In this document: positions 38,209-63,968 of the stretch, piece after piece
Position numbering within the stretch: the first letter of the stretch is position 1
How the letters are laid out: every line of letters starts with the position of its first letter
Assembly (NCBI GenBank): GCA_900617105.1
Contig: UYFQ01000001.1
Coordinates: forward strand, 1,426,001-1,490,000
Reading direction: 5' to 3'
Origin: Hydrurus foetidus
Lineage: Eukaryota
DNA length: 64,000 nucleotides
Translations under genes and position numbers: made by a program
Notes under the pieces: generated by a model
Database searches by the model: none
What the model was told of the DNA's origin: nothing
The model's input: only the letters and a program-made list of their open reading frames with translations

Positions 38209-38880
38209 TCACAGTCGACGGGATTCCCTTCGCTCGCTTGAAATTCCTTCATTTGAGACTTCTATGGCAGCCAACAAGACTTTGCGTTCTCGATTGACAA
38301 TGAAGGTATCAATGAGATTCACGACGTCGCTGTGCTCTTCCCCAAGGGCATAGTCGCGTGCGCTGCTGCCCGTTTTGTCTTTTGAACAGATGTCTGCGAG
38401 AGGCAACAACTTTTCGACCATTTGTAGGTTCCCATCGCTTGCCGCTAAGCGCAGCGCTTCGGTGGCATGCCACATGTGCGTCCTTGGTTCACAGTGATCC
38501 AAAAGCAAGAAGAATGTCCGTGCGTCAGCAGCCATCATCAAAGCGGTCCATCCCGCCTTGTCGCGCGCTTCGAGATCGCAATGCCCAGCCAGGGTCTTGA
38601 CCGATTCGAACTTATTGCTTGTGACTGCCCACGACATTGCTGTCATGCCGTAGCAATCGGCGGCATCCACCTCGCTCAACGGTAGCAATAGTTTGATGCA
38701 GTTCAGGCTCCCAAGTCGCGCAGCGTTCATGAGAGGCGTCATCCCTTCTGGATCACACCTTTTCGCAAGTTGTGCATCGCCGCGAGCAATCAGCGCAGAT
38801 AGGCCATTGACATCATCCCACTCGATGGCGGAGAGGATCAATCCGAATGCGCCATATTCGGACAGTTCAGTGGCATTCAT
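38209..38880 (-). CDS. Ankyrin repeat protein with basic C-terminal tail
   Basis: GMTPLMNAA, GMTAMSWAV, GWTALMMAA, EALRLAA repeats; ends ERRESRRL. Confidence 0.88.
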   Translation of the reverse strand: MNATELSEYGAFGLILSAIEWDDVNGLSALIARGDAQLAKRCDPEGMTPLMNAARLGSLNCIKLLLPLSEVDAADCYGMTAMSWAVTSNKFESVKTLAGHCDLEARDKAGWTALMMAADARTFFLLLDHCEPRTHMWHATEALRLAASDGNLQMVEKLLPLADICSKDKTGSSARDYALGEEHSDVVNLIDTFIVNRERKVLLAAIEVSNEGISSERRESRRL

Positions 38881-39176
38881 TTTTCGTTGACGGAGCCCGC
38901 AGCGAGTTTGGCGTTCAAACGCGCAACCTCGTCCTTAAGGGCCTTGACAATCGAAACTTTGCGCTTTCCTGCCGCTCGCTGCGCCGCAATGAGCGCACAG
39001 ATATGCTCGCGCACCGCGACGCCAAGTCCTTGTTCTTTCCAGGCCTTCGGAACGTAGACCGAAAGCATGTATTGCTCAAGCTTTCGCGACTCGTCGTAGT
39101 GCTTGCGAATTTCTGCTTTGCGAATTTTGCGCGCTTCCAGCGCGGCCGGATCGGTGACCTTTGTGTTGCTGCTCAT
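38877..39176 (-). CDS. Small basic hypothetical protein, possible DNA-binding
   Basis: 4-bp overlap with the ankyrin gene; YMLSVYVPK strand followed by helices. Confidence 0.6.
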   Translation of the reverse strand: MSSNTKVTDPAALEARKIRKAEIRKHYDESRKLEQYMLSVYVPKAWKEQGLGVAVREHICALIAAQRAAGKRKVSIVKALKDEVARLNAKLAAGSVNEK

Positions 39177-39221
39177 GATGTTCCCCTGTTGTGAAAGATT
39201 GATTCATATGGCTCTTTGTTT

Positions 39222-39926
39222 TTATGCCTTTGCTTTGGTGATCGAATACCACGCGCCGGGCGGGATGCCGCGAGTGAGATCGCGCCCTTGCTTGAGGTCG
39301 GACAAAAACTCGAGCGCCTCGTGATGGAGATTCGCATTGCGCAAGCAGTTGCGAGCATCAATCAAAACATCTTGCGCGGCCTGCCATTCGGCAATTTCAG
39401 CGCGTGAGATGGAGCTATCAAAGCGTTTCATCGTCGCAAACGCGGCGGAAAGAGTCGGCTGATCGACGATGCCGGCGAGCGTCTCGTCAATCTCGTCCTT
39501 CTTCGCCTTTTCATCAGCGGCCTCCATCTCCATCTCGGCTTTTTGAGCGTCGATGAAATCCCTCATGTTCACGAGCGTCGCGCGGGATTTGGCAAGCTTT
39601 GCTTTAAGCTCTTCGATGTCTTGCCGCATTTTCTGAATTCCGGCAAGCTTTGTTGTCGCCTCGGCTATGGCAGCTTCGGTCCTGGCAAGTTCTTTTTCCG
39701 TCATCAAGCAAGAGTCGGTGGCGGCCTGGTTGCCGACAAGGCTGCTTTTGCGCACGGCTTCGCACCACTGCTCCAAACGATCGCGGGCTTCAAGGGCTAC
39801 GGTCCACTGTTTGCTCTCTGGATTCCACTTCGCCTTCGGAAAATTGATCCGCAAGTCGTCCTTAGCAGCAAAGGGTATGAGCACAAAAAGCGCGCCGTTT
39901 CTTTCTTCAATTTTTAGCATTCCCAT
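39222..39926 (-). CDS. Coiled-coil protein with N-terminal DUF5710-like motif
   Basis: IPFAAKDDLR..FPKAKWNPESKQW; GGAG RBS; element-type promoter at 40051-40094. Confidence 0.7.
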   Translation of the reverse strand: MGMLKIEERNGALFVLIPFAAKDDLRINFPKAKWNPESKQWTVALEARDRLEQWCEAVRKSSLVGNQAATDSCLMTEKELARTEAAIAEATTKLAGIQKMRQDIEELKAKLAKSRATLVNMRDFIDAQKAEMEMEAADEKAKKDEIDETLAGIVDQPTLSAAFATMKRFDSSISRAEIAEWQAAQDVLIDARNCLRNANLHHEALEFLSDLKQGRDLTRGIPPGAWYSITKAKA

Positions 39927-40213
39927 GTCTCCATATCCCCGTTGAAGTTCTGAGCGCGCGCCATGTTTTCGAGGCGAATAGCAGCAATAACCAAAGCTGC
40001 CTCGTTCTCGAATAAGTTCATTGCCTCGTGCCTTTGAAAAACTCAGGGTCACCATCTCAAAGCCCGCTCCGAAAAGCAAGCCGTCAACCGACCGCATGTC
40101 CGAATAGGAGGCGTCAAGACGCTGCGCCCGTCGCCCTAATAAAAGGCCTTAGCGAAGGATCGAATGAAGAATGAAAGAGCCTGCCCAATCGGACGCGCCA
40201 GAGTGGCTCCTGC

Positions 40214-40441
40214 TTACTTTTTTGCGCGAGCCCTGCTCTTTGCTTTGGCGGCCAGCGCAGCCCGCAGCAAGCTCACAACGGTTGCCGACATGCTGCAAGA
40301 TTTCCCCTCTTCGGCTTCGTCGAACTGCTTTTGAATCAAGATGGCGTGTCCGACATCGGCGGGGAGACGAAAGGTGATTGATACGGCGTCAGGGCCAAGC
40401 GTCGCGGGGCGCCCTTTCTTTGCAACTTTTTGGGTTTTCAT
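40214..40441 (-). CDS. Small RHH-like DNA-binding protein
   Basis: KKGRP...SITFRLPADV...SMSATVVSLLRAAL; AAGGAG RBS. Confidence 0.6.
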   Translation of the reverse strand: MKTQKVAKKGRPATLGPDAVSITFRLPADVGHAILIQKQFDEAEEGKSCSMSATVVSLLRAALAAKAKSRARAKK

Positions 40442-40682
40442 GCTGTTCTCCTTTTTGTGGCCGCCACGCAGTCTTTTGCATTGCGAGCTTCACCATTTCT
40501 CGCATTTAAAAATACAAAATGCAAGGCGTAGCAACCACGCAAAAATGGCGGTGGATGTGTATCGGACGGACGGTCGGCTGACGACCGCCTTTGCCGTCGT
40601 GCTTCCTTGATTTTTGCCATTACCAGAGAGATGCTGAGGTGAAGATGGCAAAGCCATTTCATTCACACCTTTGGAGCGCAAC

Positions 40683-41798
40683 ATGGGATTCCTTGATAGC
40701 TACACCAAACTCGTTGACGGGCTCTTTGGAGCAAAGCCCAACGAGCCAATTCGTCTGCGTGACTACGATTATTGGAGCGCCGATTTCATTCAAAGAGATG
40801 CGGACAAGCACGCGAAAAATGCTGCCGCCGCTGCTGGCAAGATGCAGCAGGCCATCGATCGAGGAGATCATGACGCCGCGATGCGCCACCTGGCAAAAGT
40901 TGGCGAAGAGTCTGCAAAATCGGCCTATGCGGCGACAGAGGCCGCAATGGCTCGCGACGAGCAGGGCCGGCAAGAAACCGAGCGTTATCCGCGAGATTTC
41001 GAAACAGGACATCAAAAAGAGCGCGCCCCGCATGCCGCAGTCTCCAGCTTTACAAGGGGCACGGATGTCAAACCGCCTGACCCCATGTATTTGGACATGG
41101 CGATGAATGGGAGCATGGCTGCACAGGCCTTGTATGTCAGGTATGCCGAGCGCTTGGATTTGAAGAATAGGAATGCCGGCATGAAGCTCGAACCAGGCGC
41201 GCCAACGATCAAGCAGCAAATGGTGGCTAAACTGGCTGAATGGAATGCAGCCGGGCCACAAAAGCTTCCCAAGCTCGATCACACCAACGCGCCTCGATTG
41301 CCGAAGCTCAACCTTGGGGAGAAGCCCTATTCCCGCGAGGAGATAACCGCCAATCAAGAAGCATTGTCCAAGTTCACTGCGCAGGCGCGCAAAGAACAGC
41401 TCAACGCCCTCTTCCCGTTCCTTGCTGATTCAGCGAAGCCTAAGACGGCCATCGTCCGCCATAAAGCGGCGGACACGCAAGCATCACAATCGAACCAGCA
41501 AAAGATGGAACCGGTCCAAAAGCAACTTCCTGGGCAGCGGCAAGGCATTTCGCCATCCCAACACGCGCAGCTCAAGCAAGGAGCAGGCGGAGCGCTCTAC
41601 GAACGGGGTGTTCAAGATGTGCAAGAGGCGAAGCGGCGAGCCGATTCCATGTCTCCGCAAGAGCTAGCCAACAGCAAGGAAAAATACAAAGCGGGCGCCG
41701 TCGATCTCACGCTGCTTTTAGCCTCAATGGATCAAGCGCCACTGGTGGCGCAGCAACAAAAGAAAAAGCAGGCAGGCGATCAAGGAATGAGCCTCTAG
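40683..41798 (+). CDS. Hydrophilic hypothetical protein (Q/K/A-rich, ends KKKQAGDQGMSL)
   Basis: GGAG RBS, element-type promoter at 40607-40635, terminator downstream. Confidence 0.75.
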   Translation: MGFLDSYTKLVDGLFGAKPNEPIRLRDYDYWSADFIQRDADKHAKNAAAAAGKMQQAIDRGDHDAAMRHLAKVGEESAKSAYAATEAAMARDEQGRQETERYPRDFETGHQKERAPHAAVSSFTRGTDVKPPDPMYLDMAMNGSMAAQALYVRYAERLDLKNRNAGMKLEPGAPTIKQQMVAKLAEWNAAGPQKLPKLDHTNAPRLPKLNLGEKPYSREEITANQEALSKFTAQARKEQLNALFPFLADSAKPKTAIVRHKAADTQASQSNQQKMEPVQKQLPGQRQGISPSQHAQLKQGAGGALYERGVQDVQEAKRRADSMSPQELANSKEKYKAGAVDLTLLLASMDQAPLVAQQQKKKQAGDQGMSL

Positions 41799-41820
41799 AC
41801 CAGGACTAAGCCGACCACAG

Positions 41821-41845
41821 AAAGCCCGCGGTTGCGGGCTTTTCT
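41821..41845. terminator. Intrinsic terminator between convergent genes
   Basis: aaagcccgc-ggtt-gcgggcttt. Confidence 0.7.
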
Positions 41846-41897
41846 CTTGGTTGGATGGGTAGGCCTTGTTTGGCGCTTGAGCCACCACCAAAGTCCG

Positions 41898-42365
41898 TTA
41901 AAGCCGTGTGCTGGACGCTTGAAATGCCAAGGGTGCTTTGGCTGCTTTGGAGATCGCCACAACATCGTCTGCTATGGCTTTGGCGGTGTTGAAATCGCGA
42001 ATCTGGAATTCAATCATGAAGTCGCCCACGCTGGTCGATGGCTGCTCATGTTGAAAACGGAGCCGTATCCGGGGAGCGTTTCCCCAAAAAAAAGAGACGG
42101 CCGATACAACTTTTTGGCTATCGAACAACTCTTGCACAGTCACAAGGTAATTCCGAAGAGTAAAACCGAAGGTGGACCCGGTAGGCCATACACCCTCCGT
42201 CGACAGGGATTGCTTGAAGTCCGCAAAGTCGATAGCAGCTTGCACGAACGGCCCATTCGGATCGTGCGATTTAATGTGAGTTATATTCGCCCCCACTGCC
42301 TTCATGAGCCATTTGAGGTCTTCAAGGTCCTTGGTTTCGAGTGCTCCCGTATGTGCCGATTTCAT
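41898..42365 (-). CDS. Hypothetical protein
   Basis: ATGA overlap with the upstream gene. Confidence 0.55.
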   Translation of the reverse strand: MKSAHTGALETKDLEDLKWLMKAVGANITHIKSHDPNGPFVQAAIDFADFKQSLSTEGVWPTGSTFGFTLRNYLVTVQELFDSQKVVSAVSFFWGNAPRIRLRFQHEQPSTSVGDFMIEFQIRDFNTAKAIADDVVAISKAAKAPLAFQASSTRL

Positions 42366-42757
42366 AATCGGATCGTTGCCTTTCGGGTGGTTGAAGGGAT
42401 TCGAACGCAACGCTCAAGAGCCTTGCGTTCTCGTGCGATAGATGCTGCGCGCCGAAGCTCCGGGAGGGGTTTTGCCCGCCATGTCCACCGATTTGTTCCG
42501 ATCCGTGCAATCCAAGTGGAACAATCGAACTGGCTGGAGGCCCCTTTGCGGTCCTCATATTTGACTTCTTCAAACTTTTGAAACATTGCCTTCAGGTCGT
42601 CATCGTTTTTCGACCAACGCTGGAACCATTCGTCGCTCAAATTTGGCCCAATGAGGACCTGTTTTTCGGACGCGTCGATGTGTTCAAAGACTTGCTTGGC
42701 GCCCTCCAGAGAGGCTAAGAAGAGGCCCGATTTGAGAGATATGTTCTTGAGTTTCAT
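42362..42757 (-). CDS. Hypothetical protein with ERKAL...IRL C-terminal tail
   Basis: Ends IARERKALERCVRIPSTTRKATIRL; conserved upstream element at 42766-42820. Confidence 0.65.
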   Translation of the reverse strand: MKLKNISLKSGLFLASLEGAKQVFEHIDASEKQVLIGPNLSDEWFQRWSKNDDDLKAMFQKFEEVKYEDRKGASSQFDCSTWIARIGTNRWTWRAKPLPELRRAASIARERKALERCVRIPSTTRKATIRL

Positions 42758-42847
42758 AGAGAAAGAGTGTGACACTGATCGACTTTTGTGTGTAAATAAT
42801 CGATTTACCGGTATGGTTTACAAACACGAAGTCAACGCTTCCAGAAG

Positions 42848-44005: not shown

Positions 44006-44191
44006 GAATGTCCTTGGGAGTAATCTATGAATAACTTCCCAAAACGGCGCCAAATCCGCAAGTAATTCTTACTTACAAAACGGGTGATCTGCTGGACGGT
44101 CGGTTGCCGATCTAGCGCAGGCTCCACACCAAAGCAAAACCCCTCTTTCAAGGGGTCTTGCAGGATTAGGATTCTTTGCTTGAACGTCGTC

Positions 44192-45475: not shown

Positions 45476-46528
45476 GGCGACCTCCAAGATGTGGTTAAAG
45501 ACACCATCTCAAAGCACAAGGAACAATGCAAGTCGGTTACCGACCGACCATCGGAGAGGTTTAAAGAGCGACTCAAATGCGCGTCGGCGCCGATTCTTCC
45601 TCTTCTGCTAGGGTCGAGTCTCTTTCGATTGCATTGGCGCGATTAATGAGCACATAGCAACACACAGCGCCCAGAATAGCGAAGGCGGCGCTTGGCGCCA
45701 CTGCATAGGCGGGCGGGAGAAAACCTTGCATGAGCTGACTGAACCCTGCAACAATTGCCATCCCGCAGTTTGCAGTCGCCGTGACGGACGCTCTAGATTC
45801 GGGCTCGGAGAATAGATCAAGAGTCGAATACAGGTTCACATAGGACCCCGACGCAAAGCCCAGAGCCACGAAAATCGCACCCAGCAATAATGGGGAAGTA
45901 GGCGCGGCAAACAGCAAGACAAGCCAAAGCACCGCCGAAGCCAGTGAAGCATCAATGCCGATCGGGCGACGCATATTGCGAGCATCGGCCATCCGACCAA
46001 GAACGGCGCCACCCAAAGCGAAGCCGCCCATCATGGCGGTGGTGAGCCAGCCGATCATCTCGGCGGAAAGTCCCATTCTTGTCCCGAGCATGAAAGCCCC
46101 AAATCCAACAAAAGCGTGAAGCGATCCAGCAAGGCCGCCCATCACGCCGGCCCCAAGATAGACATGGGGCTTTTGAAGAGCGTGGCCGAGCGCTGGAAGC
46201 GCGCGGCGCAAAGCCCCAATGAATGAACTGGGAGAGTCTTTGGGTGATAGAAAAAGAGTGGAAAGCCCTATCGCAACCGCGATGAATGCGGCACCCAAAG
46301 AGGCATCGCGCCACGACACCGATTCAAGAAGAATCGCCAAGGGAATGCCTGCGAGCATGCCTCCCCCGTTGCCGATGGCCATGCCAGTGCCTATGGCTCC
46401 GCGGACGCCATGGTGATAGTTAGCGCGGCACTGCGCAACCATCGACACGAACACGGCCACAGCGCCCATTGCCGTTATGGCTCTTGCGCATGCAAAAGCC
46501 CACGGCGCATCGGCAAAAGCAAATATAA

Positions 46529-47819
46529 GGGCAGTTCTATAAATCGACGTTAACCACCCCAAGCCTTGCCTGGGACGCTAAACATTTCACAATGCGAATT
46601 TGTTTTGTGTTTTTTCGCATTTTTGGTGATTTCGAGGCGCTTCAAGGGGGGTTTTGCCCCCATTTCAGGCCACTTGGCCCATTTTGGGCGTGAGCAGGCG
46701 AGAGAAGCTAAAAACCTTGTTGCGCATGAGTATCTCAATGCGGCTGATGTTGTAGGTGAGGTTCATCAACGCCACGCCCACTTTGGCGCGAGCGAGTCCG
46801 ATGGTGCGCAGGCCCATGCCGCCCATTGTGTTTTCCATGTGCCCAAAGACATGCTCAACGCGAGCGCGTACTTTGGACTTGGTTTTGTTGGTGGCCTTTT
46901 GTTCCTCCGTCAGAGGATGGTTGCGATACGCCCGCTCATGGATGTGGCTGCTGTGTTGGCTGGCCTGGAGCGCCTTTTCCTGCTCCTCTGAGCGGTAGGC
47001 GCTGTCTGCCCACGTGTCTTTGCCACCCTCTTCTGGTGTGCGCAGCACGGTATCAAGCTCTTGGCTGTCGTGAACGCTGGCATCTGTACACGCATGCGCC
47101 GTGATCAGCTTGGTGTCTTTGTCGATGTTGATGTGGTTCTTGTAGCCGTAGTGGCTTTGCCCGCTTTTCTTTGTCCAGCGGGCATCTACGTCTTTGTGCC
47201 GTAGCTTGTTTGCGTTGTCCATCCACTCTTCGGGGGTCTTGCCTGCTTTGAGTTGGGCATTCTCTTCGCGCCCATTGCGCTGGATGGGTACGGGGATAAA
47301 GCTGGCATCTATGATTTGCCCACTTTTGAGTTCCACGCCCATATCCCCTAGCGCTTGGGTCAGCTTGTCCAGCAGGGGCTGCATCAGGTCGCTCTTCTTG
47401 AGCGCTTCGCGAAAGGCCCAGACGGTTCTTGAGTCAGGTACAAGTCCAGCCAACTCCAACCCTAAAAACCGCATGAACGACAGCCGGTCCGTCACTTGGT
47501 ATTCCAAGCGCTCGTCTGAGAGTTGATGCAGGCGCTGGAGCAGCAGCATCTTGAACATCACGATTCGGCAGGTTGGTGGACGTCCTGCTGCGCTTTTGCG
47601 TGGCTTTACATCTATGCGCTCGAGCGTCGTGCGAAACATCTCCCAGTCAATTGCCTCATTCAACCGCTCCAGCGGATCTCCGGCCTCGCTCAACTTCGCG
47701 TACCTCTTGTCGAGGTCAAAAAACTGCTTTGCATCATGGCTTGTGATTAGGAGGCTTCTTAGATAAACGATTTATATCGTTTATGCGTTGACTGGATTTG
47801 GGAATTTATAGGACTGCCC
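46529..47819 (-). mobile_element. IS5-family insertion sequence, 1291 bp
   Basis: 16-bp terminal IRs GGGCAGTTCTATAAAT / ATTTATAGGACTGCCC (15/16 match); 4-bp target duplication ATAA. Confidence 0.93.
46665..47737 (-). CDS. IS5-family DDE transposase with apparent 5' frameshift
   Basis: QIIDAS, DVDARWTKK, YGYKNH, WADSAY, RARVEHVFG; ATG at 47737 is out of frame by one base at a T6 run. Confidence 0.88.
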
Positions 47820-48305
47820 ATAAAGCAGCCAAGGGCCATCGCAAAGCTGCCTGATGCGCTCACTTTTCGCGGACCTGCCGCATCGATCAAAAGACCGACA
47901 GGAATTTGAAAGAGCAAGTAAGCCCAAAAGAAGCAAGACCCGATCATGGATAGGGCTGCGGCATCAAGGCCGATGTCTGCTTGCATGCTTGGGGCGAGCG
48001 CGCCAAACGCTGCTCGGTGGAACATTGCGACGGAATAGGCCGCGCTCATGATGTTGACGGACAATGCGCCCAGTCGAGTGGTATGTTGCATCGGGAGACC
48101 TCGTGTTTTAGTTCTTGTGGAAGCTAAAACAACCCTCTCAAAGGTGCGATCAAGGCGCAAGTCGTCAACCGACCGACTGTCGGAGGAAACGGTAAATATC
48201 AAACGGAAAGTGATTTCTAGCCATGCGAACCACCGCGAGGTCGTGAACCGACCGGAAATGGAAATATTCGACACTGCCAAGCCGCTGCTGGTCCTCTAAG
48301 AAAAA

Positions 48306-48956: not shown

Positions 48957-48967
48957 CGTAGTCCCCG

Positions 48968-49019: not shown

Positions 49020-49226
49020 GCAAAAGGCTTGATGGCTCGACGCGCTTCGGATGGGCGGCAATCAAACGACGCTGAAAATCAAACACGGATCGCTGCCTTG
49101 TCGCGAATCAAAAACCTGCGATCCGCTGGACGGTCGGTTGTCGACCTTGATACTGAGCCCGCCACGTGGGAGAACTTAGAGAACGCCGCGCTACGCCGGT
49201 CCATTCAATAAGTCGGGAGAGAAATC

Positions 49227-50417: not shown

Positions 50418-50433
50418 AGAAAGGAGACCCACC

Positions 50434-50798: not shown

Positions 50799-53024
50799 TC
50801 AATTCCTGCTTTGTTTCGCCTTGGCGCGCCAAGCGTGCAGCAAAGGCTCGGTGTAGCCATTGGGTTGCTCCATGCCTTTTAAAACCAGCTCGACGGCGGC
50901 CTGGTAAGCCAGGCTTGTATCGAAGTTTCCCGCCATCTGCTTGTATAGCGGGTCCTTGGCGTTTTGGCGATCGACGATCGATGCCATGCGCTCAAAAGCC
51001 TCGGTGACTTGCGCGTGGGTCACGATGCCATGGCGCAGCCAGTTGGCGATGTGTTGGCTGCTGATGCGCAGGGTCGCGCGGTCTTCCATCAGGCCGACAT
51101 TGTGGATGTCAGGAACCTTGGAGCATCCAATGCCTTGGTCCACCCAGCGCACGACATAGCCAAGAATGCCTTGGGCGTTGTTGTCGAGCTCTTGCTGGAT
51201 TTCATTCTGCGACCAGCAGGGTGTCTCCACAACCGGGATGGTAAGCAAGTCTGCAAGGATGCTTTCGCGAGCCGCTGCCGATCGCGCCTTCTGAATCTCG
51301 GCTTGGACGGCTGCGACATCGACCTGGTGATAGTGCAATGCGTGGAGCGTCGCGCCCGTGGGGCTCGGCACCCAAGCCGTGGTTGCGCCCGACTTCGGGT
51401 GCGCGATCTTTTGCCGCATCATGTCGGCCATCATGTCGGGCATCGCCCACATGCCCTTGCCGATTTGAGCCTTCCCGCGCATGCCGCAAGAGAGTCCGAC
51501 CAAAACATTGCTTTTCTCATAGGCTGCGATCCACGCGCTTGCCTTCATGTCCCCTTTGCGCAGAACCGGACCGGCCTGCATGCATGTGTGCATCTCATCG
51601 CCCGTGCGGTCAAGGAATCCCGTGTTGATGAATGCCAGGCGGTTCTTGGCCGCTGCGATGCAAGCTTTGAGGTTGGTGCTTGTCCTGCGCTCTTCGTCCA
51701 TGATCCCCAGTTTGACGGTGCCCAGGCGCAAGCCAAGGGCCGTTTCGACGCGCCCAAAGAGCTCGTCAGCAAAGGCGACTTCGGCGGGCCCGTGCATCTT
51801 TGGTTTGACGATGTAGATGGATCGCGCGAGGGAGTTGCGCGGCCCACTGCCCTTCTTCAAGTCGTGCATTCCAATGGCGGTTGTAACCATGGCATCCATG
51901 ATCCCTTCCGGGATTTCCATCGTCGACCCATCCGCCGCCTCGTAGAGGATGGCGGGGTTGGTCATCAAATGTCCAACATTGCGAATGAACATGAGCGATC
52001 GGCCTTGGAGCGCAATGTCTTTGCCCCCTCGCGCCGATTTGTAAACGCGATCCGGGTTTAGCGACCGCTCGACCATCTTGCCGTCCTGCCCAAAGGTGGC
52101 CGACAATGAACCTTGCATCAAACCGAGCCAGTTGGCGTAGGCCGCCACCTTATCCTCGGCATCGATGGCCGCCACAGAATCTTCAAGATCGAGAATCGTT
52201 GACAAGGCAGCTTCAACGATTACATCGCTGACCCCCGCGGCGTCCTGCATCCCTATGTCCGAAGACTCCGAATTGATTTGAATTTCCACATGGAGCGCGT
52301 TGTGGACCAGAAGAACAGCCGAGGGCTTTGCGGCCATGCCTTGGTAGCCGACAAACTGAACGGAGTTCGCAAGCGTGGTCGATTCCCCGCTGGCAAGCTC
52401 AACGACGAGCTCTCCCCCGACGATCGAATACCCGCATGATCCGACATGCGATCCGTATTTGAGTGGCGCCACTCGATCGAGCACATTGCGAGCATATTCG
52501 ACAACTAAGGCGCCGCGAGCGGGGTTATAAATCCTGCCGCGCCTCTCGCAACCACCGGCTTCGGCAATGACATCCGAGCCATAGAGCGCGTCATAGAGCG
52601 AACCCCAACGGGCGTTCGCGGCGTTGAGCGCATAGCGCGCATTCATCACCGGGACAACAAGCTGCGGCCCCGATTGTTTGCTCAGTTCCCTATCGACGCG
52701 CGTGGTCTGGACCTTGACGGTCTTCGGCCGATCAACGAGGTATCCGATCGAGCGCAAGAACTCTTTGTATGACGCCATGTCGGCAATCGGTCCGGGATGA
52801 GCCATGTGCCATGCATCAAGCTCGGACTGCAATCGGTCGCGTTCTTTGAGAAGAGCGATGTTGCGCGGCGCCATGTCGCCTACGATTGAATCAAAGCCAG
52901 ACCAAAATTCTGCGCTGGAAATTCCGATGCCAGGCAAAACATTGCTTTCGACGAAATCGAAGAGTTGCTTGTCGATGTGCAGCTTGTTTAGGACAATGCG
53001 AAGGGAAGACTTTGGCGAGTTCAT
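50799..53024 (-). CDS. glcB: Malate synthase G
   Basis: [71 protein letters not shown]. Confidence 0.97.
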
Positions 53025-53169
53025 GTCGGTCCTTTAAAGTGGTTTGTTGATTCACACTCTCAAAACCGCCGTCGACTCGCAAGGCTTTTTTGCTTACAAA
53101 ACAAATGATCCGCCAAGCGGTCGGCAGACGACCTTAAGGTTTTTGCAGGCGCCTCTAGACTTTCACCAA

Positions 53170-55131: not shown

Positions 55132-55253
55132 GGGAACCTCCTTTCAGCAATTTTTGAGAGAATGAAAGTGTGCCACCGATCGACTTTTGTATGTCAAAAA
55201 TCGATTTATCGCTTTGGTTTATGACGAAAATTGCGCGCTCGCCTATCCTAGGG

Positions 55254-56027
55254 TTAGACGTCTTTTCGTCCGCGCTTGACGGGGCCGACGGTTGCGATGC
55301 CGTTGATATCCGAAGGATAGGAGATGCGAACCGTTTCGCCCTTTTGCGGGAGCGGCGAAGGCAGCAAAGCCTTCTCGTGAACGATAAGGCTGCGTCCGCT
55401 CTTTTGGAATACGACGTGGGTGTCGTATCCGTAGATGGCGCCGCTGTAGGTCTGCCCTGCTGCGGCCCATCGTGCGCTTTTGCCTGTTCCCGCCAAAGCC
55501 TTGGCGGCCTTTGCCTCGTAGGCGGATACGCGGGGGCGCTCACGCAGAGGCTGCGGGGGTGTCTCGCGCTCATGCTCAAAATCCAGTGAAACCTTGGTGG
55601 CAGTGATCGTGACATTCAGTCGCTTGGCACCCATATCGATCGCCTTTTTCACGAAGTCAAGATTGATCGATTCCACGAAGTCATCGCCACCAAGAATCTG
55701 CCACGCGTCCCATCCGTCCTCCGGGGTCATGCCCTTGGCATAGACCACAAGGGAGCGCTGGCCAGTGGGGTCGGCCGGGTCCATTAGGCGCGGTGTGCCG
55801 GATGAGAGCAGGTAAACACCGTGATCTTTGGCAAGCTGGAGATGTGCCGGGATTTTGGAATAGTCGAGGTCTTCGGTCTTGGCCCATCCGCCAACGTGCG
55901 GTGTGATGCCCTCCTTCCAGTAGGCCGGGTCCGCCATCATGTTGTAAGTCGGCGAATGGGTCGCGCTGGCGAGAGCGTGGGCGACGATGGGTTTGAGGGC
56001 TTCGACATCAAAAACAAGTTTAGCCAT
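55254..56027 (-). CDS. DUF3085-like domain fused to KfrB-like domain
   Basis: LAKDHGVYLLS, VYAKG, GGDDFVESI; C-terminal GQTYSGAI...QKSGRSLIVHEK...GETVRISY. Confidence 0.7.
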   Translation of the reverse strand: MAKLVFDVEALKPIVAHALASATHSPTYNMMADPAYWKEGITPHVGGWAKTEDLDYSKIPAHLQLAKDHGVYLLSSGTPRLMDPADPTGQRSLVVYAKGMTPEDGWDAWQILGGDDFVESINLDFVKKAIDMGAKRLNVTITATKVSLDFEHERETPPQPLRERPRVSAYEAKAAKALAGTGKSARWAAAGQTYSGAIYGYDTHVVFQKSGRSLIVHEKALLPSPLPQKGETVRISYPSDINGIATVGPVKRGRKDV

Positions 56028-56077
56028 GGTGTTTCTCCTTAAGTTGGCGTGGTGGGTGGTTTGGCAATGGCTGCCGA

Positions 56078-56647
56078 TTAGCAGCAAGCGGCGTTTGTGA
56101 CCGTGTAGGTCGTGCCGGCAAATTCAAATTCGGTCATGTCTCCGCCAAGCTCGCAATCGCGGGCAAAGGCTGCGTAGTCGATGTAGTTGCGGACCGACTC
56201 GGGGATGTCCGACAAGTAGCATTCATCGAAAAGCTCTTCGGCTGCATCCTTGAGTTCGCCTTCGTAAATGCTGGGTTCGTCGATCTTCTCGATGGCCTGC
56301 TCGATCGAGCAATTGAGGACACTGGTCAAATAGAAAAATGCGGGCTTCTGGTGGTCGTCGATGGTCAACACCTCGTCGAAGAATTGCTCTAGGTTGGCTT
56401 GGTTCACGCCGCAAGCGTTAAAGAGATCAATCTCTTCGGCGTCGCCATCAATCACTTGAATTTCGAATTCCTCCACAGGGTTGCCAAAGCTGTCGCGCAA
56501 GGCCTCGGCCTTGGCTGTGTAGTCCTCATAGTCCGAGAAGTAGAAGCCGCGAGCATCAAGGCTGTAAGGCTGCGCAAAGCAAGAAAGCCCAGAAGACATA
56601 GGGAAATCGGTGGCTTTGCTGGAAGTTTGGTTTTGGGTGGTGTTCAT
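56078..56647 (-). CDS. ardA: Antirestriction protein ArdA (acidic DNA mimic)
   Basis: AQPYSLDARGFYF, VEEFEIQVIDGD, YIDYAAFARD; very acidic. Confidence 0.85.
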   Translation of the reverse strand: MNTTQNQTSSKATDFPMSSGLSCFAQPYSLDARGFYFSDYEDYTAKAEALRDSFGNPVEEFEIQVIDGDAEEIDLFNACGVNQANLEQFFDEVLTIDDHQKPAFFYLTSVLNCSIEQAIEKIDEPSIYEGELKDAAEELFDECYLSDIPESVRNYIDYAAFARDCELGGDMTEFEFAGTTYTVTNAACC

Positions 56648-57143: not shown

Positions 57144-57344
57144 TTAGAAAAGCCAAATGGCGATCGCGATGGCGACCAGGGCAAATTGAGCTCCCAAAAG
57201 AATATTTGCAGAGCGGGGCGATACGCCCTGAGATGCCATTCCGTCCTCAAGGTCGAGCATCGCTTGATCGGCTCCGTCGTCGATCAGGTGCGACACAGAG
57301 CTTGCGCGCTTGGCCTTTGTTTTGTCAGTGGTGTCGTTGTTCAT
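57144..57344 (-). CDS. Small protein with C-terminal TM anchor
   Basis: AGGAG RBS; ends FALVAIAIAIWLF; element-type promoter at 57395-57423. Confidence 0.6.
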   Translation of the reverse strand: MNNDTTDKTKAKRASSVSHLIDDGADQAMLDLEDGMASQGVSPRSANILLGAQFALVAIAIAIWLF

Positions 57345-57562
57345 GGTGCTCTCCTGGTGGTTACTGGGCTTCAAGTTATCGAGCCCTCAAACCCACCCTC
57401 CCAAACCGTGGGACTGAAGTCCAGGTCTTTCACGTCGTTTTGTATTAAAAAAAGCGCGAACTGACCGGCGGTCGACAACTTGGGCCGGCAACCGACCGTC
57501 GGCATAGCAATCAAATGCAAACAGCGCCAAGCTGGATTTAGAAACTCCACCACGAGGCGCGC

Positions 57563-59200
57563 ATGTCCACACTTCCAAACCCCAAAACAACCGTCGCATC
57601 ACACGCAGGCCCCGCCATCGAGGCGGTGGAGCTTCGCGAGCGTCGGATAAAAAGACGACCTCAACAGCTAGACCCTAAGAGTCAAGAAGGCCGAGAGGAT
57701 GCGAAGCGCCGCAAATGGGCCTGGTTGACCATCGGCATCCTCCTGATGTCCACTGCACTTGCTGGATTGTTCAATGCGCGCGGCGCATACGATCGCCTTG
57801 ATGAAGCCCGCGAAAAGACAGCTCAACAGGTGCAGGTTTATTCAAAAATGGTGGCTGCCCATGATCGATTCGAGATCGCGATGGCAGACCAAATCATCAA
57901 AAGCTTGATCGATCACATCGACGACGGAATAGCCAACGGCGTCACCGAGGGCGACGCGCGCAAAGCCTTCGAGGCAGTGATGGCGGACCATCGCTCGCGC
58001 CTGCCTGGCATTGCTTCGTTCTCGATCATCGGCGCCGACGGCATCCGGCGCTTTGGCGTCGCGGGAAAGAATTTCACCGACCTAAACTCCCGCCCTTATT
58101 TCAAATATTTAAAAGCGGGCAAGGGTGAACTTTTTGTAAGCGCCGCTGAGGATGGACTGGCCTCTGGCAAGCAAGGCGTGCATGTCGCGCGCCGCCTATC
58201 CAAGCCTGATGGCTCGTTTGGCGGCGTTGTGGTGATAAATTTGGCGGTCGAGGATGTCTTCAAGCCCTACTACCAGTCGCTGGGATTAAAAGGAGACGTG
58301 CGCATTCAATTGCGCACCGACAACAAGCTGATCATGGAATTTCCAGAAGCGAAGCAAGCCACGCTTTCGGCGATCGCCAGCGACCTCATCAACAGTGGCA
58401 AGGCGAGTGGGTTGGTTGCGGAAAAACAAAATGGCGAGAAATGGGTTCAGGCCATTGAGCGCTTGCCCGACACGATGATTTTCGCCCAAGCAAGCATGTC
58501 GGAAGACGAAGCGTTAAAGGCTCCGATTGAAGGCGCATGGCAAGCAGCCCTGCTCTTTGCGGTTGCAGCTCTCGGCGCCGGCTTTGCGATCTTCTCGATG
58601 CGTTCGGCAATCAAGAGCGGCACAGCCCTCGCCATGGCTTATGTTTCAATGCGCCGCATGGCAACTCACGACAAGCTCACGGACTTGCCGAACCGTGCCT
58701 ATCTCGGGCAACACTTTGTTGAACGCTGCAAGGCGATCGTTGATCGCGGCGAGGTCGCAGGCGTAGTTTTCATCGACCTTGACAAGTTCAAGAGCGTCAA
58801 TGACACCTACGGTCACAAAGCGGGCGACGCCCTGCTCAAACAAGTGTCCGCCCGATTCATTGAAGCGTCAGGCGAAAATGCCCTGGTGGCTCGCCTGGCT
58901 GGCGACGAATTCATGATTTTGGCGAGCCTAGGAAAGGATTTAGGCGCTGCACGCGATGGAGAGGCGCAAGCCAAGGTTCTCTGCGAAGCCGTGCTTGAAC
59001 AAATGGGTGGGAAATTCGACCTTGGCTCGGCCATCATCAAAAGCGGCGCTTCGCTAGGGGTCGCCCGCTTTGGTCGCGATGGAAATGACTTGGACGCCCT
59101 ATCGAACAAGGCCGACAAAGCGATGTATCGGGCTAAGCAACAAGGACGAGGCCAGTTCGCAATCTACGACCCCGAAAAAGACGAAGACATCAATCATTGA
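57563..59200 (+). CDS. Sensor (Cache-like) diguanylate cyclase
   Basis: HDKLTDLPNR, FIDLDKFKSVNDTYGHKAGD, ARLAGDEF, ADKAMYRAKQQGR. Confidence 0.92.
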   Translation: MSTLPNPKTTVASHAGPAIEAVELRERRIKRRPQQLDPKSQEGREDAKRRKWAWLTIGILLMSTALAGLFNARGAYDRLDEAREKTAQQVQVYSKMVAAHDRFEIAMADQIIKSLIDHIDDGIANGVTEGDARKAFEAVMADHRSRLPGIASFSIIGADGIRRFGVAGKNFTDLNSRPYFKYLKAGKGELFVSAAEDGLASGKQGVHVARRLSKPDGSFGGVVVINLAVEDVFKPYYQSLGLKGDVRIQLRTDNKLIMEFPEAKQATLSAIASDLINSGKASGLVAEKQNGEKWVQAIERLPDTMIFAQASMSEDEALKAPIEGAWQAALLFAVAALGAGFAIFSMRSAIKSGTALAMAYVSMRRMATHDKLTDLPNRAYLGQHFVERCKAIVDRGEVAGVVFIDLDKFKSVNDTYGHKAGDALLKQVSARFIEASGENALVARLAGDEFMILASLGKDLGAARDGEAQAKVLCEAVLEQMGGKFDLGSAIIKSGASLGVARFGRDGNDLDALSNKADKAMYRAKQQGRGQFAIYDPEKDEDINH

Positions 59201-59216
59201 TCGGCCGCCAGAAAGC

Positions 59217-59247
59217 AACAAAGCCCGCCGCCAGCGGGCTTTGTTTT
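59217..59247. terminator. Terminator between convergent genes
   Basis: aacaaagcccgc-cgcca-gcgggctttgtt. Confidence 0.7.
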
Positions 59248-59267
59248 GAGGCGAAGCGTTGCTGGCA

Positions 59268-59924
59268 TTAGATCGGACCGCCATTGCGCCCCCCAGTGGG
59301 AAGCTCCGGCAACAGACCTCCATCGCCCGTCAAGCCTGACCGAATGTCGGTCGCCTCGACGCCTTGCTCTGCTGCGCGCATAGCTTGATGCAAAACGCGT
59401 TGAACATTCGACGCAAACTCTTTGTGCCTTGGCAAATTCGACCATGCGCGGCCTGCTGCTTCGACGGGTGTCATCCAAACGATATCCCACTGGCCTATGC
59501 GGTCGACGACGGTGCCGAGAAGGTTTTCTTCAACCATGCTTTCAACATGGCCGTCAGCAGTAATGTAGAACGCCTCTTGGCCTGCAAGATCGGTGATAGA
59601 TGAGAAAAGCTGCCCTTTGCGGATAGCAGCCTCTTTGAGACTGGTGACCTTGTTTTTCTCCACCCATTCAAGCAGGTCGCCTTTGGCATACATGCAGGCC
59701 TGATTAGTTCCTTTGGCTTCGATGCCGCCACCTTGGTGATAGGTGGGTCCTGTGCCCTTTTTGCGGAGCCTCTCGACATAGGTGACGGATGATCGCAAGA
59801 AAATCGCAACCTCGCTGGTGGTAAGAAGGTCCTCGGGCGACAGGGCCTTAATTGCGGCGAGCACTTCGACGACCTTCATTTGTTCGCCGTTGTAAGTGAC
59901 CGTCGCAAGCAGTGATTGAGCCAT
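59268..59924 (-). CDS. Excisionase/AlpA-like HTH protein with C-terminal extension
   Basis: EDLLTTSEVAIFLRSSVTYVERLRKKGTGPTY...YAKGDLLEW. Confidence 0.7.
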   Translation of the reverse strand: MAQSLLATVTYNGEQMKVVEVLAAIKALSPEDLLTTSEVAIFLRSSVTYVERLRKKGTGPTYHQGGGIEAKGTNQACMYAKGDLLEWVEKNKVTSLKEAAIRKGQLFSSITDLAGQEAFYITADGHVESMVEENLLGTVVDRIGQWDIVWMTPVEAAGRAWSNLPRHKEFASNVQRVLHQAMRAAEQGVEATDIRSGLTGDGGLLPELPTGGRNGGPI

Positions 59925-59967
59925 TGTGATCTTTCAAAAAGACAAGGGTTGTTCTTGGAGCCAGCCG

Positions 59968-60786
59968 TCAAAAACTATTGTGGTCAAAAGCTACGCAACC
60001 CGCCTTGGCCGCCGCTGCCTCGATCGTGTCAACGGGCAAATAGGCGTTGAATTCAACAACTGGCTCATCGTCCAAATCGCCCGCCAAGCAAAATTTCAAA
60101 AGTATGCGGGCCACGCCTTCGTCTGGACTAAATTCGGCAAGCCACATGAGATGCAAAGCAGGGTTTTTTAAATTTGCTAGAACCCTCTTCGGCGAAACAA
60201 TCTTCGCCTTCCATTCCCGCCCGGCGCCATCCACTGAATTCATGGTGAACTCACGGCTTGACTCGACATAGGCCAATGCCTTTGCCTGCTTCGTTCCAAG
60301 CTTTGGAGGCCAAATCGCAGCTGCCTTTCTATTGGCAAGGGCGTTGGCATTCGGCTTCGAATCGATGCGCTTTAAGCGTTTGTTTGCCACGAACGCGCAC
60401 GGGACAGGCTTCTCGCCTGCGATCGCCTTGGCCTCCGCCAAGAGCATCCGATCAAACACCAACTTGGGCTGCAAGCTTTCAAAGGTGATGGAGTCTCCCG
60501 CCGGGCTTTCTGCGACGATCCACCGCCTATCGTCGATCAGATCGCCGTTCATGAAGTGTTGCTCCAAGACGAATACCGTTCGATTAGTCCAAGTCTGTAG
60601 CATTGTCAATGCTGCGTCGTTGGCCTTCAATGCCTCTTCAAATGGCCTGCGCCTGTTGCCGACACCATCTTTGGCGCTTGGCGTGCGTTTGATAATTCGC
60701 ACATTGCCACCAAGGGCAAGCGCATAAGACAAGAATCGAGCATCGGCGAAGTCAATCGTGTCGAATGTAAGTGTTGTGCTGGTCAC
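59968..60786 (-). CDS. Hypothetical protein, paralog of 61325-62134
   Basis: Shared blocks FLSYALALGGNVRIIKRTP and WPPKLGTKQAKA; GGAGG RBS. Confidence 0.7.
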   Translation of the reverse strand: MTSTTLTFDTIDFADARFLSYALALGGNVRIIKRTPSAKDGVGNRRRPFEEALKANDAALTMLQTWTNRTVFVLEQHFMNGDLIDDRRWIVAESPAGDSITFESLQPKLVFDRMLLAEAKAIAGEKPVPCAFVANKRLKRIDSKPNANALANRKAAAIWPPKLGTKQAKALAYVESSREFTMNSVDGAGREWKAKIVSPKRVLANLKNPALHLMWLAEFSPDEGVARILLKFCLAGDLDDEPVVEFNAYLPVDTIEAAAAKAGCVAFDHNSF

Positions 60787-60794
60787 TGCGCCTC

Positions 60795-61316
60795 CTAGCT
60801 GGACTTGAACGAATGGGTTATCTCTGCCGATTCGAGGTAGTCAGCCATTTCATTATTGCCAGCCCATCGCGCATAGCCGGCGGCGGTCCTGCCTTCGACG
60901 TTCTTTGCCATGGGGTCGCTGGATGGGAGCAAGACGTTGACTATTTCGAAGTTATTGGAAGCGGCCGCTCCCATCAATACGGTGTTTTGAAGCTTCCCGA
61001 TTCGCGCTTTGAAATCGATTTTCTTTTCGATGCCTGCGAGCACGACTTCAAGAGCAAGAAGCCCAAGCCCACCAGCAGTCGCTCCTGGCGCGGCCTTTCC
61101 AGCGCTGTTCACCAACATGCCGATCATTTCCACATTGTCAAACATGTCTGGATTGTCGGCCCACATAGAGCGCAACAGCGGCTCGTTGCCCGACTCCATC
61201 GCATCGGCAGAAGCCTTCATTGCTTCAATTTTAGCCATCAGCGCTGCTGCTTGTTGCGCGCTCATACGGGGGTTTCTCCCTGCGGGATTCGAGGTGCTTT
61301 TTTTTGCTTTTGCCAT
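60795..61316 (-). CDS. Ankyrin repeat protein
   Basis: NTVLMGAAASNNFEIVNVLLPSSD...GRTAAGYA. Confidence 0.75.
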   Translation of the reverse strand: MAKAKKSTSNPAGRNPRMSAQQAAALMAKIEAMKASADAMESGNEPLLRSMWADNPDMFDNVEMIGMLVNSAGKAAPGATAGGLGLLALEVVLAGIEKKIDFKARIGKLQNTVLMGAAASNNFEIVNVLLPSSDPMAKNVEGRTAAGYARWAGNNEMADYLESAEITHSFKSS

Positions 61317-61324
61317 GGGGTCTC

Positions 61325-62134
61325 CTATTCTCTTTTTCCGGCGAACATGAACGATACGACGGGGGCGTTCTTAGGATCGTTTGCGACGCAAAGCACGGCG
61401 TGCGCAATGAAATCGCCCATCGAGAAATCACGCACAACATCCTCCCCCGGCTCTTCTGCGTATTCGAAAACCGCCAACGAGCTGTCTTTCAAGCATTTGG
61501 CAAAAGTCTTCAACCCGACCACTTTCCATTTACTCCACAGTCCATATTTGCCGACAGGGTTCTTGCGCATGATGTATTTGCACTGTTGGGCCGCCTCGAA
61601 GGCTTTGGCCGCGTGAGTGCCCGCAGCAGGCGGGAAAGCATGGGTTTTCGTGCGGTTCTCGACCTCGGCCTTGGCCTTCTCGTCTTTGACGACATCCATG
61701 CGCACGCCCGCCATCACGACGGGAGGGAAAAGAGGGTCCTTCCAGGCGCAGTGCCCTTCCGCGTCGGACATCTTCGCTTTAACGGCCTTGAGCTGCTCAC
61801 TTAGAAAAACGACCTCATCGCGCGTTGTATCGTTGGTGATGGCCCACCAGCTTTTGAAGTCGTTGAACGCCTTGACCTTGATCGTCTTCGCCGTCCAGTT
61901 GCGCGCGATGAAGTAAGCACCGCCGCTTGTGAGGTTCTGTTTGTAGCGGTCCTTGTTTTTAAATCCTTGGGGCGTCTTCTCCACCAAATCAAAGTTGGAC
62001 CCCAGCGCCATGGCGTAAGCCAGCAGGGTGTCGTCAATCGCGCTCGGAGCCGGGGCCGATTTTGGGACAGACTTCGCCGAAGGCTTTGATGCAGACTTTG
62101 GGGTCGCCTTGATTGTTTTTGCTACTTTCGCCAT
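61325..62134 (-). CDS. Hypothetical protein with K/A/P-rich N-terminus, paralog of 59968-60786
   Basis: LLAYAMALGSNFDLVEKTP and FPPAAGTHAAKA; AGGAG RBS. Confidence 0.7.
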   Translation of the reverse strand: MAKVAKTIKATPKSASKPSAKSVPKSAPAPSAIDDTLLAYAMALGSNFDLVEKTPQGFKNKDRYKQNLTSGGAYFIARNWTAKTIKVKAFNDFKSWWAITNDTTRDEVVFLSEQLKAVKAKMSDAEGHCAWKDPLFPPVVMAGVRMDVVKDEKAKAEVENRTKTHAFPPAAGTHAAKAFEAAQQCKYIMRKNPVGKYGLWSKWKVVGLKTFAKCLKDSSLAVFEYAEEPGEDVVRDFSMGDFIAHAVLCVANDPKNAPVVSFMFAGKRE

Positions 62135-62143
62135 CGCAGTCTC

Positions 62144-63142
62144 CTATTGTTTCCCTGCTTTTTTGCTTTTCGCAGTTTTCGATTTGGGCTTTGCCAGTGC
62201 TGCCGCCTTGGCTTTGATTGACTCAATGCCTTCGGGCGTCAAGAAAGGCTCGATTCGGCGGTGCCAGCCTCTTTGCGGCCCCACCTCCGCGCGCAGGGCC
62301 TCCATGAATGCCTTGTCTTCGTCACTTTCGCCAAACTCGCCGAACTGCTCGCCGCCGTATGTAAAAAAGGGACTGCCGCCTTTGCGCAGGCAAGTGAGGA
62401 TATCGTCCAAACCCTGATAACCGCCATTGAAGAACTCAAGGGCAATCAGGTCTCCCTCCCAATTCTTTTGTCCGTCCAACACAGGGTCTTCAGGGCTTGG
62501 CATGTCGCCAAGGCGCCCCGCTTTTTTGGCGGCCACAAACATCTTCCAAAGCTCAGCCTCCGTGGCGTCCACTTTGAATTTGAAATCGAATCCCACAACG
62601 CGCTTGTCGCCTTTCCATTCGGCGGCGAAATCCATGGAAACAACGGACGGTTTGCCATCCTCGCCGTAGTTGCATCCGGGTTTGCGGATCAAGTCATGTT
62701 TTCTTTCGATCAAACGAACAGCCGCCTTGACGGAATTGATGGGGCGGATGGGGCTCCCAAGCCGAACGCTTGAGACTGGATCGGTTTGGCCGCCAAAGTC
62801 ATATCCGCGCATCGCCACATAAACGAGAAAGTCCAACGTCCATTTGGGGTTGTCGTCCTTCCGCTCCCCGCGTAGTTTCGTTTTCTTTGGAGAAGTCGCC
62901 TCCGCTTGGCTGCTTGAGATATCGGCCGATTGCTCATTGCCGAGCCTTTGCAAGGCAGAAGTCTCAAGCAATTCGATGAGGCTGCGTTTTAACGGCCGGA
63001 GTGTTCCGAACATGAACTTGACTTTTTCTCTCGAGTCCGCATCGTAGGCGACGAAATCGTTACGCGCCATGCGGCACCATGACTCCACGCTTTCCACCAT
63101 TTCCAAAAATTCAGCGTCCGTTTCAGCTTCTCTAATGCTCAC
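62144..63142 (-). CDS. Hypothetical protein (332 aa)
   Basis: Long ORF, GGGAG RBS, tight operon spacing. Confidence 0.7.
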   Translation of the reverse strand: MSIREAETDAEFLEMVESVESWCRMARNDFVAYDADSREKVKFMFGTLRPLKRSLIELLETSALQRLGNEQSADISSSQAEATSPKKTKLRGERKDDNPKWTLDFLVYVAMRGYDFGGQTDPVSSVRLGSPIRPINSVKAAVRLIERKHDLIRKPGCNYGEDGKPSVVSMDFAAEWKGDKRVVGFDFKFKVDATEAELWKMFVAAKKAGRLGDMPSPEDPVLDGQKNWEGDLIALEFFNGGYQGLDDILTCLRKGGSPFFTYGGEQFGEFGESDEDKAFMEALRAEVGPQRGWHRRIEPFLTPEGIESIKAKAAALAKPKSKTAKSKKAGKQ

Positions 63143-63173
63143 ATCTATCTCCCTAGGTTAGTTTTGTTTATCA

Positions 63174-63968
63174 TCAAAGCGGCCCATGAGGCTCCGGGCC
63201 TACGAATCCCGGAGGCAGGTCCGAAAAGGCGGCCTGCTCTTCGCGCGCAAGCAAATATGAGGCAATGCAATCCGGCACCGCATCAAGCTGTGCCGGATCG
63301 GCGCCAGCTTCGATTAGAGCAATGGCAATTTCGCGGAAACCGTCCTCGTCCAGGCCACCTTCCGAATACGATTCCCCAGCCCTAAACAAAGGGGTTTGTC
63401 CTTTGCAGGCAACCCCGTAGGCCTCGGAGTTGGGATCGACGCCTCGCGCTAGCAGTTCTTTGATGATTGCCGGAGAGTCATAGGCCAAATACCAAATCAG
63501 CGGACCACTGATGCACCGCAGGTTGGGGTCCATGCCGGCGTCAAGCATTGCAAGAACGGCTTCATCGTAGCCGTTGCTGTTGGCATATTCCGCTGGGGTC
63601 AACGCATCCTTGTCGTAAAGACTCGGGTTCGCCCCCGCCTTGATCAGAAAGCGCGCCATCGCCCAATCGTCGCCCTCAGGGCCTTCACTTTCGACCGACC
63701 GAGCCAAGGCCGTGCAGTCGTAGTCGCCCTGATAGTCAATTTCAGCTCCCACCTTGATCAGAGCTTTGGCGATGGACAATGCATTGTTGCCCTTGAATCT
63801 CGCCACGGTTTGAAGTGGTCGGTCGCAGTCCTGGGTGATATCCCAAACATCAGGATCAACACCATAGGAAAGCAGCGATTGCACACGGGAGACATTCAAT
63901 GCGCTCACGGCAACATGCATCTGTGCAGCCAGATCGTCCATTTCGTCGTCTGTGAATGCCTTCCCCAT
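63174..63968 (-). CDS. Ankyrin repeat protein (acidic)
   Basis: ALIKVGAEID, FLIKAGANP, MLDAGMDPN, LLARGVDPN, GQTPLFRA. Confidence 0.85.
   Translation of the reverse strand: MGKAFTDDEMDDLAAQMHVAVSALNVSRVQSLLSYGVDPDVWDITQDCDRPLQTVARFKGNNALSIAKALIKVGAEIDYQGDYDCTALARSVESEGPEGDDWAMARFLIKAGANPSLYDKDALTPAEYANSNGYDEAVLAMLDAGMDPNLRCISGPLIWYLAYDSPAIIKELLARGVDPNSEAYGVACKGQTPLFRAGESYSEGGLDEDGFREIAIALIEAGADPAQLDAVPDCIASYLLAREEQAAFSDLPPGFVGPEPHGPL

Follow-up and report, generated by a model that had tools for sequence, protein, structure and literature searches.

The stretch of DNA analysed here (the window; 64,000 nucleotides of contig UYFQ01000001.1 from the Hydrurus foetidus assembly GCA_900617105.1, forward-strand positions 1,426,001 to 1,490,000) begins in host chromosome, perhaps that of a betaproteobacterium, where clpA, clpS and genes of metabolism lie. 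The rest belongs to a long integrated element that extends past its right end at position 64000. Within the element a defence cluster is followed by a DUF5906 gene, the genes for a type IV coupling protein (T4CP) and a MOBF relaxase, an AT-rich gap and ∼28 kb of mostly minus-strand cargo, which includes ArdA, DUF3085-KfrB, LPD29 and four ankyrin genes. Several otherwise unrelated cargo proteins end in the same C-terminal tail, which is considered here as a candidate translocation signal. Genes are designated by their lowest window coordinate (Table 1).

The tail has two parts: an E-x3-[LI] motif, the Glu of which lies between positions −22 and −26, and R-[LI] immediately before the stop codon. 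Between them is a variable spacer with many basic and small residues. The four strong tails picked out by a first-pass annotation of this DNA (38209, 42362, 48306 and 54553) were found where it had placed them, all on the minus strand and with the sequences it had quoted. Its proposal that at least three unrelated protein types carry the tail was also borne out, since the two ankyrins are 31% identical to each other, and neither 42362 nor 54553 has a match among the rest. Four weaker members had been listed alongside them. The relaxase (profile score −8.3; see below), 59268 (2.7) and 63174 were dropped on scoring; the last of these retains the Glu helix, and its LPPG spacer resembles that of an ankyrin of the sister locus L002, but it ends in PL. 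The fourth, 40671 (40671–41798, listed from 40683), scores 4.5 but is without the Glu anchor, and its last residues are GMSL. That ending and the GLGMG terminus of the L002 T4CP form a second ending type, distinct from the tail studied here, which we take to be of a kind seen in mobilisation proteins. An additional weak candidate, absent from the earlier list, is 41898, the start of which overlaps the stop codon of 42362, so that the two genes are coupled; its product has no Pfam, NCBIfam or PHROG match. The gene starts of 42362 (42757) and 48306 (48956) are likely ones, having been set from homologue lengths. A DNA-level repeat or hairpin behind the tails was considered and rejected, as the tails have no DNA repeat in common.

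Table 1. Principal features of the window (window coordinates; scores are those of the profile trained on tails from outside the window).
Feature	Coordinates	Strand	Tail or other remark	Tail score
Ankyrin-repeat protein, 223 aa	38209..38880	−	Glu anchor −26, ends RRL	7.7
Orphan soluble protein, 155 aa	41898..42365	−	Degenerate tail D-x3-I...TRL; candidate fifth member	5.0
Orphan protein, 131 aa	42362..42757	−	Glu anchor −22, ends IRL	6.4
Ankyrin-repeat protein, 216 aa	48306..48956	−	Glu anchor −23, ends SRI	17.1
LPD29-domain protein, 192 aa	54553..55131	−	Glu anchor −22, ends IRI	4.2
Ankyrin-repeat protein	63174..63968	−	Tail incomplete or decayed: Glu helix and Pro-Gly spacer present, terminal Arg missing; excluded from the members	−4.1
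clpA	4426..6780		Host chromosome
clpS	6903..7265		Host chromosome
DUF5906 primase/helicase-type protein	21907..23778	−	48% identity to the L002 copy
TrwB/TraD-like T4CP	24673..26847	−	Pfam TrwB_AAD_bind 8e-40; proposed tail reader
MOBF (TrwC) relaxase-helicase, 2263 aa	26926..33717	−	Four DUF5710 repeats; no tail
Small gene upstream of the relaxase	33720..34343	−	L002 has a counterpart (46%); probable accessory protein of the relaxosome
Coiled-coil gene	39222..39926	−	No tail; family marker common to L003/L004
DUF3085-KfrB and ArdA anti-restriction proteins	55254..56647	−	Both untailed; adjoin the LPD29 gene

In the window the expression E-x3-[LI]-x13-20-[RS][LI]-stop matched 4 of 182 open reading frames (ORFs) of at least 90 residues, taken from all frames, and these are exactly the four strong carriers; a looser first expression additionally matched two shadow ORFs among 600. 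When applied to the sister loci described below, the stricter form matched 8 of 273 ORFs (seven cargo genes and one shadow frame) against 3 of 3,662 control ORFs, although the S allowed at −2 was taken from the sister tails and with R only there are six sister matches. The training set for a two-block position profile was 17 tails of non-window proteins, which had been selected by eye in the knowledge of the window motif. Six of the 30 cargo genes (40671 and five of those in Table 1) reach a score of 4 with this profile, compared with none of 2,128 phage-contig genes and none of 273 plasmid genes. The mark of 4 was chosen after the scores had been seen and the phage set is partly AT-rich, and for these reasons the associated p-value of 2e-12 overstates the contrast; moreover, one shadow ORF of the window scores 5.2. 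A reverse profile, trained only on the four window tails and three homologues of 42362, placed tailed cargo in all of the top seven positions among the 273 sister ORFs. At a score of at least 4 it retained 7 of these 273 against 4 of 3,662 control ORFs, the eight best control matches being shadow frames.

So short a motif might arise by compositional chance or be a functionless leftover of gene shuffling. Besides 54553, two homologues of 42362 score low (−1.0 and 1.5), and 21 of 6,145 internal truncation points reach 4. Against this, the window and the sister loci predict each other's tails, the tail is anchored to the end of the protein, and its helix and last two residues are conserved above the level of the body. 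These controls largely refute the chance explanation, which we now regard as extremely unlikely.

The conservation is clearest among five homologues of 42362, in which invariant positions make up 17 of the 18 in the Glu-helix stretch and both of the last two residues, but 1 of the 11 in the spacer and 64 of the 100 in the body. Judged from these five sequences, the Glu helix and the two terminal residues are under selection and the spacer is not. An AlphaFold model of a 98% identical twin of 48306 (mean pLDDT 86) places the Glu block on a prolonged final helix (residues 180–202), followed by 16 low-confidence residues that are probably flexible; the model of 42362 (pLDDT 37) was unusable. A long protruding helix of this type might instead belong to a peptide that docks on another product of the element or its helper, such as a chaperone, scaffold or regulator, or be a shared oligomerisation helix, with no export involved, and several conserved genes of the family, such as 39222, have no known function. 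Yet the genes shared by the window and all three sister loci in tblastn searches are those for the T4CP and the relaxase, and the strict end position of the motif suits a threading machine. Docking without export is therefore given little credence here and seems decidedly doubtful.

The tail is found on proteins of very different kinds. When the tails were removed, BLAST linked the ankyrins to one another and most of the L003/L004 proteins to one another, and left 42362, 54553, 41898 and two L002 proteins unlinked; by this comparison the tail is present on at least six unrelated protein bodies. None of 300 records of plasmid LPD29 homologues covered 80% of the 54553 query, and both of the two homologues that were retrieved lack the tail, which is therefore portable.

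All 23 tailed proteins are soluble, with no strongly hydrophobic segment (maximum 19-residue hydropathy ≤1.57), and the five most hydropathic cargo proteins (≥1.89) have tail scores of −6 or lower. Every one of the 23 tails ends in L or I and has a hydrophobic residue among its last three, both of which were in part selection criteria, and the last 10 residues carry a net charge of +1 to +4 throughout. Acidic residues are depleted at the end in 21 of the 23, just two having one within the last six positions. An ExxE motif lies upstream of the end in 13 of the 23 tails overall and in one of the five window tails, and FxxxLxxxK, the Dot/Icm LvgA signal, occurs in none of the 23. Type IVA signals are described as having positively charged ends, and type IVB signals a terminal hydrophobic residue and upstream Glu (PMC12981334, PMC10025392; these and the other PMC-numbered sources are cited from excerpts). 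In its sequence composition the tail mixes features of both.

A basic-hydrophobic end of this composition might instead be a degradation tag, read by ClpXP in the manner of a C-motif-2 degron, with the Glu helix binding an adaptor and the early proteins of the element being kept short-lived. In the C-motif-2 degron of MuA, too, basic residues precede an aliphatic one at the terminus, with a Glu upstream (PMC12723719). Furthermore, the tailed proteins are cytoplasmic, their end may be flexible as noted for the ankyrin model, and the relaxase would need no match to such a tag. However, a tag for a host protease would be expected widely on phage and plasmid genes, yet none of the 2,401 control genes reaches the mark; confinement to one lineage would likewise not be expected. 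A plain degron has no known need for a conserved helix at least 20 residues upstream, and none of the 23 tails ends in AA. We consider a degradation tag unlikely, though a serious rival; were it nevertheless correct, the tail would act as an element-wide timer for early genes.

The T4CP of the window has nine relatives at 45–75% identity, among them a protein of Massilia sp. NP310 (QYG02238.1); one more is 28% identical. An alignment-based metagenome scan (47 of 64 parts covered) returned at least five loci, three of them with close T4CPs: L002, where the T4CP is 48% identical to that of the window and the relaxase architecture and the primase are also present, and L003 and L004, at 44–45%. 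These loci contain three, five and three tailed ORFs, respectively (11 in total). The first-pass annotation had proposed a test for co-occurrence of the tail with this T4CP/relaxase clade. Indeed, the tail was present in all three loci with a T4CP 44–48% identical to that of the window, and absent from the phage contigs and other plasmids examined. L001, L005 and L006 were not counted as sisters, because their T4CP similarity is only 25–27% over short stretches; L006 gave no match to the tail expression. In L003 (2017–6135) and L004 (3177–6476) the tailed genes form a run of diverged paralogues with similar N-termini, GSPLD before the tail and no Pfam match.

No window genes other than those for the T4CP and the relaxase were detected by tblastn in all three sister loci, and 39222 is common to the window and L003/L004 only, in the DNA examined. 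L003 and L004 additionally encode a DotA/TraY protein (NCBIfam 2.9e-115) and a type IV pilin beside the T4CP, relaxase and integrase (DotA/TraY at 17871–20045 and pilin at 7110–7550 in L003; 17888–20068 in L004; ∼21.6 kb examined). No mating-pore gene was found among the 51 window proteins scanned, the element continuing beyond 64000, and no integrase within the 64 kb, where an excisionase-like helix-turn-helix protein (59268) is present. That only the T4CP and relaxase recur in all sisters, with DotA/TraY and pilin added in L003/L004, points to islands that borrow the channel of a helper. The compact L003/L004 islands, with their lone DotA/TraY and pilin, suggest that parts of a type IVB helper are being swapped. 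Such helper-part swapping has reportedly been described for SGI1 with IncC.

The co-occurrence with the T4CP clade, the composition of the tail and the helper-channel pattern together lead us to prefer the explanation that the island's own T4CP reads the tail as a type IV translocation signal specific to this lineage; we consider this about as probable as its opposite. The features usual for C-terminal signals of type IV secretion systems (T4SS) were found, in that the tail occupies the free C-terminus of soluble proteins and a T4CP is encoded in the window and in 3/3 same-clade loci. The T4CP would recognise the tail and send the tailed soluble proteins into the recipient, together with the element's DNA, via the mating pore of a helper element. 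The element itself would then be mobilisable rather than self-transmissible, as is suggested by the lack of mating-pore genes among the proteins scanned in the 64 kb, beyond which the element continues. The unstructured basic-hydrophobic end may be threaded first, with the helix giving specificity, and the passengers would help the element to settle in its new host. There is precedent for such transfer, as conjugation machines translocate maintenance proteins of plasmids in a process that depends on the T4CP (PMC8406263, PMC11288057). A broader proposal, tentative and in our estimation somewhat more apt to fail than to hold, is that of a family of mobilisable islands in which a private T4CP and a two-part tail inject a panel of proteins (ankyrins, LPD29 and orphans) through a hijacked helper channel, genes becoming deliverable when shuffling gives them the tail and the list of passengers being readable from sequence.

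Several observations weigh against a signal read by the T4CP. The relaxase, the one certain substrate of the T4CP, does not carry the motif in any of the window, L002 and L003, though there are MOBF relaxases, TrwC and TraI among them, whose signals are internal (PMC10025392). The known establishment proteins ArdA and DUF3085-KfrB have no tail, and the tailed genes of L002 are found past the primase, outside the presumed leading region. As L003 and L004 are near relatives, only three independent lineages with genomic context are available, the window included. Among other ankyrin matches 7 of 23 are tailed, some with longer spacers, and since these seven lack genomic context the tail may reach beyond this T4CP clade. 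Moreover, on a tree with weak support the tailed ankyrins group together (2 changes, where shuffling gives a mean of 8.4), so that they amount to roughly a single acquisition. Just 1 of the 23 tails matches the VirB/D4 arginine consensus, which is R-x7-R-x-R-x-R close to the C-terminus.

The likeness to known signals is partial in each case. As with the Agrobacterium VirF-type signals and the C-terminal 48 aa of MobA, which serve VirB/VirD4 systems, the tail is short, portable, end-anchored and positive over its last 10 residues, and the element's T4CP belongs to the VirD4 superfamily; it differs from them in the rarity of the arginine consensus and in the addition of an upstream conserved helix and an R-[LI] end. 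Soluble element proteins are delivered with DNA, in a T4CP-dependent manner, by pED208 (ParA, ParB, SSB, PsiB and PsiA) and as the F 'conjutome' (PMC8406263, PMC11288057), and the present proteins may be of the same sort. The signals described in those excerpts are varied and C-terminal or internal, whereas here one motif recurs on unrelated bodies, and the island is without a mating pore of its own in the DNA examined. XVIPCD (Xanthomonas) and BID (Bartonella) are also portable C-terminal modules on unrelated passengers, and are bound by the T4CP (PMC10432156, PMC10025392), but they are folded domains of at least ∼120 residues compared with a tail of ∼25, and no such Pfam domain was found here.

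The Dot/Icm (type IVB) signals of Legionella and Coxiella, an E-block read by DotM, have in common with the tail an upstream Glu, small residues near the end, few acidic end residues and a terminal L or I; the ExxE of 13 of the 23 tails and the DotA/TraY of two sister elements add to this likeness, though ExxE is seen in just one of the five window tails. It is from here that a further alternative arises, namely a type IV signal aimed at eukaryotic cells (protists, algae or plants), with the ankyrins as effectors that a type IVB helper would deliver. The four ankyrin genes of the cargo, the DotA/TraY genes of the sisters and the hydrophobic end with upstream Glu would all fit. On the other hand, the tail has no Glu-rich block but a fixed E-x3-[LI] helix containing one or two Glu, its end is strongly basic, and no match to DotA, DotL or DotM was found among the window proteins scanned. 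The tail also sits on a relaxase-bearing island with a TrwB/TraD-like T4CP, LPD29 is part of the polyvalent-protein repertoire of plasmids and phages (PMC5512222), and the ankyrin-only proteins have no catalytic or eukaryote-type domain in Pfam. A eukaryotic target thus appears very unlikely. Overall, the sequence comparisons indicate that the tail is a real feature, like known C-terminal T4SS signals but outside the specific types tested, and that its mechanism is a matter of inference.

How a T4CP chooses its protein substrates in conjugation is poorly defined, because no clear motif is common to most of those known. A motif of 25 residues that is linked to a single T4CP clade would offer a small candidate signal-reader pair. 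If the tail is indeed a translocation signal, it would predict which orphan proteins arrive in the recipient ahead of any gene expression, as candidate establishment or counter-defence factors, and the tail could provide a compact tag for protein delivery from bacterium to bacterium.

Searches were also made outside the element family. The motif as a general feature of T4SS plasmids was rejected, there being no tailed gene in four plasmid stretches (50 of the 107 kb of pBVIE04, which has DotA/TraY; a whole 149 kb Ahniella plasmid; 40 kb from Burkholderia and 6 kb from Sphingobium). A phage link was likewise rejected: back-translated DNA patterns matched IMG/VR at chance level (13 of 69 and 22 of 123 in frame; 18 of 64 parts covered for the second pattern, which was AT-rich and a guess), with no convincing tail. 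Searches of phages by tblastn with two tailed ankyrins found nothing, and protein-based scans of viral contigs found no relative. A tail-only tblastn search gave two chance matches. Among 1.84 billion representatives the tail profile, which at 36 positions is too short for the threshold, found one protein at E ≤0.001, itself an L003 training protein. The ESM Atlas held no usable match for the 42362 tail, and the P0026 query returned generic ankyrins. GTDB scans found no member of the T4CP clade, although the Massilia sp. NP310 protein belongs to it, and PLSDB gave no close relative of the T4CP or relaxase. Neither the motif nor the island family was found in full-text literature searches, which covered mostly open-access papers. 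Co-folding of the cytoplasmic part of the T4CP (118–660) with the 48306 tail, carried out without alignments, scored 0.00 and is evidence neither way.

Several further features of the element were recorded. The defence cluster between clpS and the primase (9846–21746) comprises a WYL regulator, a type III restriction-modification pair, a UvrD helicase, an OLD/GajA-like ATPase-TOPRIM protein and an Mrr-type nuclease; the matching position in L002 is occupied by a different restriction cluster. The AT-rich gap upstream of the relaxase operon (34343–36000) contains a 29-nt inverted repeat at 34843–34942 and probably holds the transfer origin. In the cargo an MFS transporter gene (45573–48280) is apparently interrupted by an IS transposase (46665–47693), and full malate synthase G and Cache-GGDEF diguanylate cyclase genes lie at 50799–53024 and 57563–59200, respectively.

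An intergenic motif, GACNGTCGGT(C/T)G, for which there is no chance control, recurs upstream of both tailed and untailed element genes and is a candidate operator or element-specific promoter. It was seen in the window at 26864–26891, 40076–40103, 44077–44113, 45540–45552, 48157–48184, 49111–49147, 53098–53134 and near 57500, and in L002 near 9922, 12197, 13301, 15572 and 19998. A sigma-70 scan was uninformative, with 3 sites against 10.0 in shuffles. Finally, a 69-nt repeat, 80% identical between its copies at 42752–42820 and 55153–55221, lies directly upstream of the unrelated tailed genes 42362 and 54553, as if the two were cassettes with a common leader.

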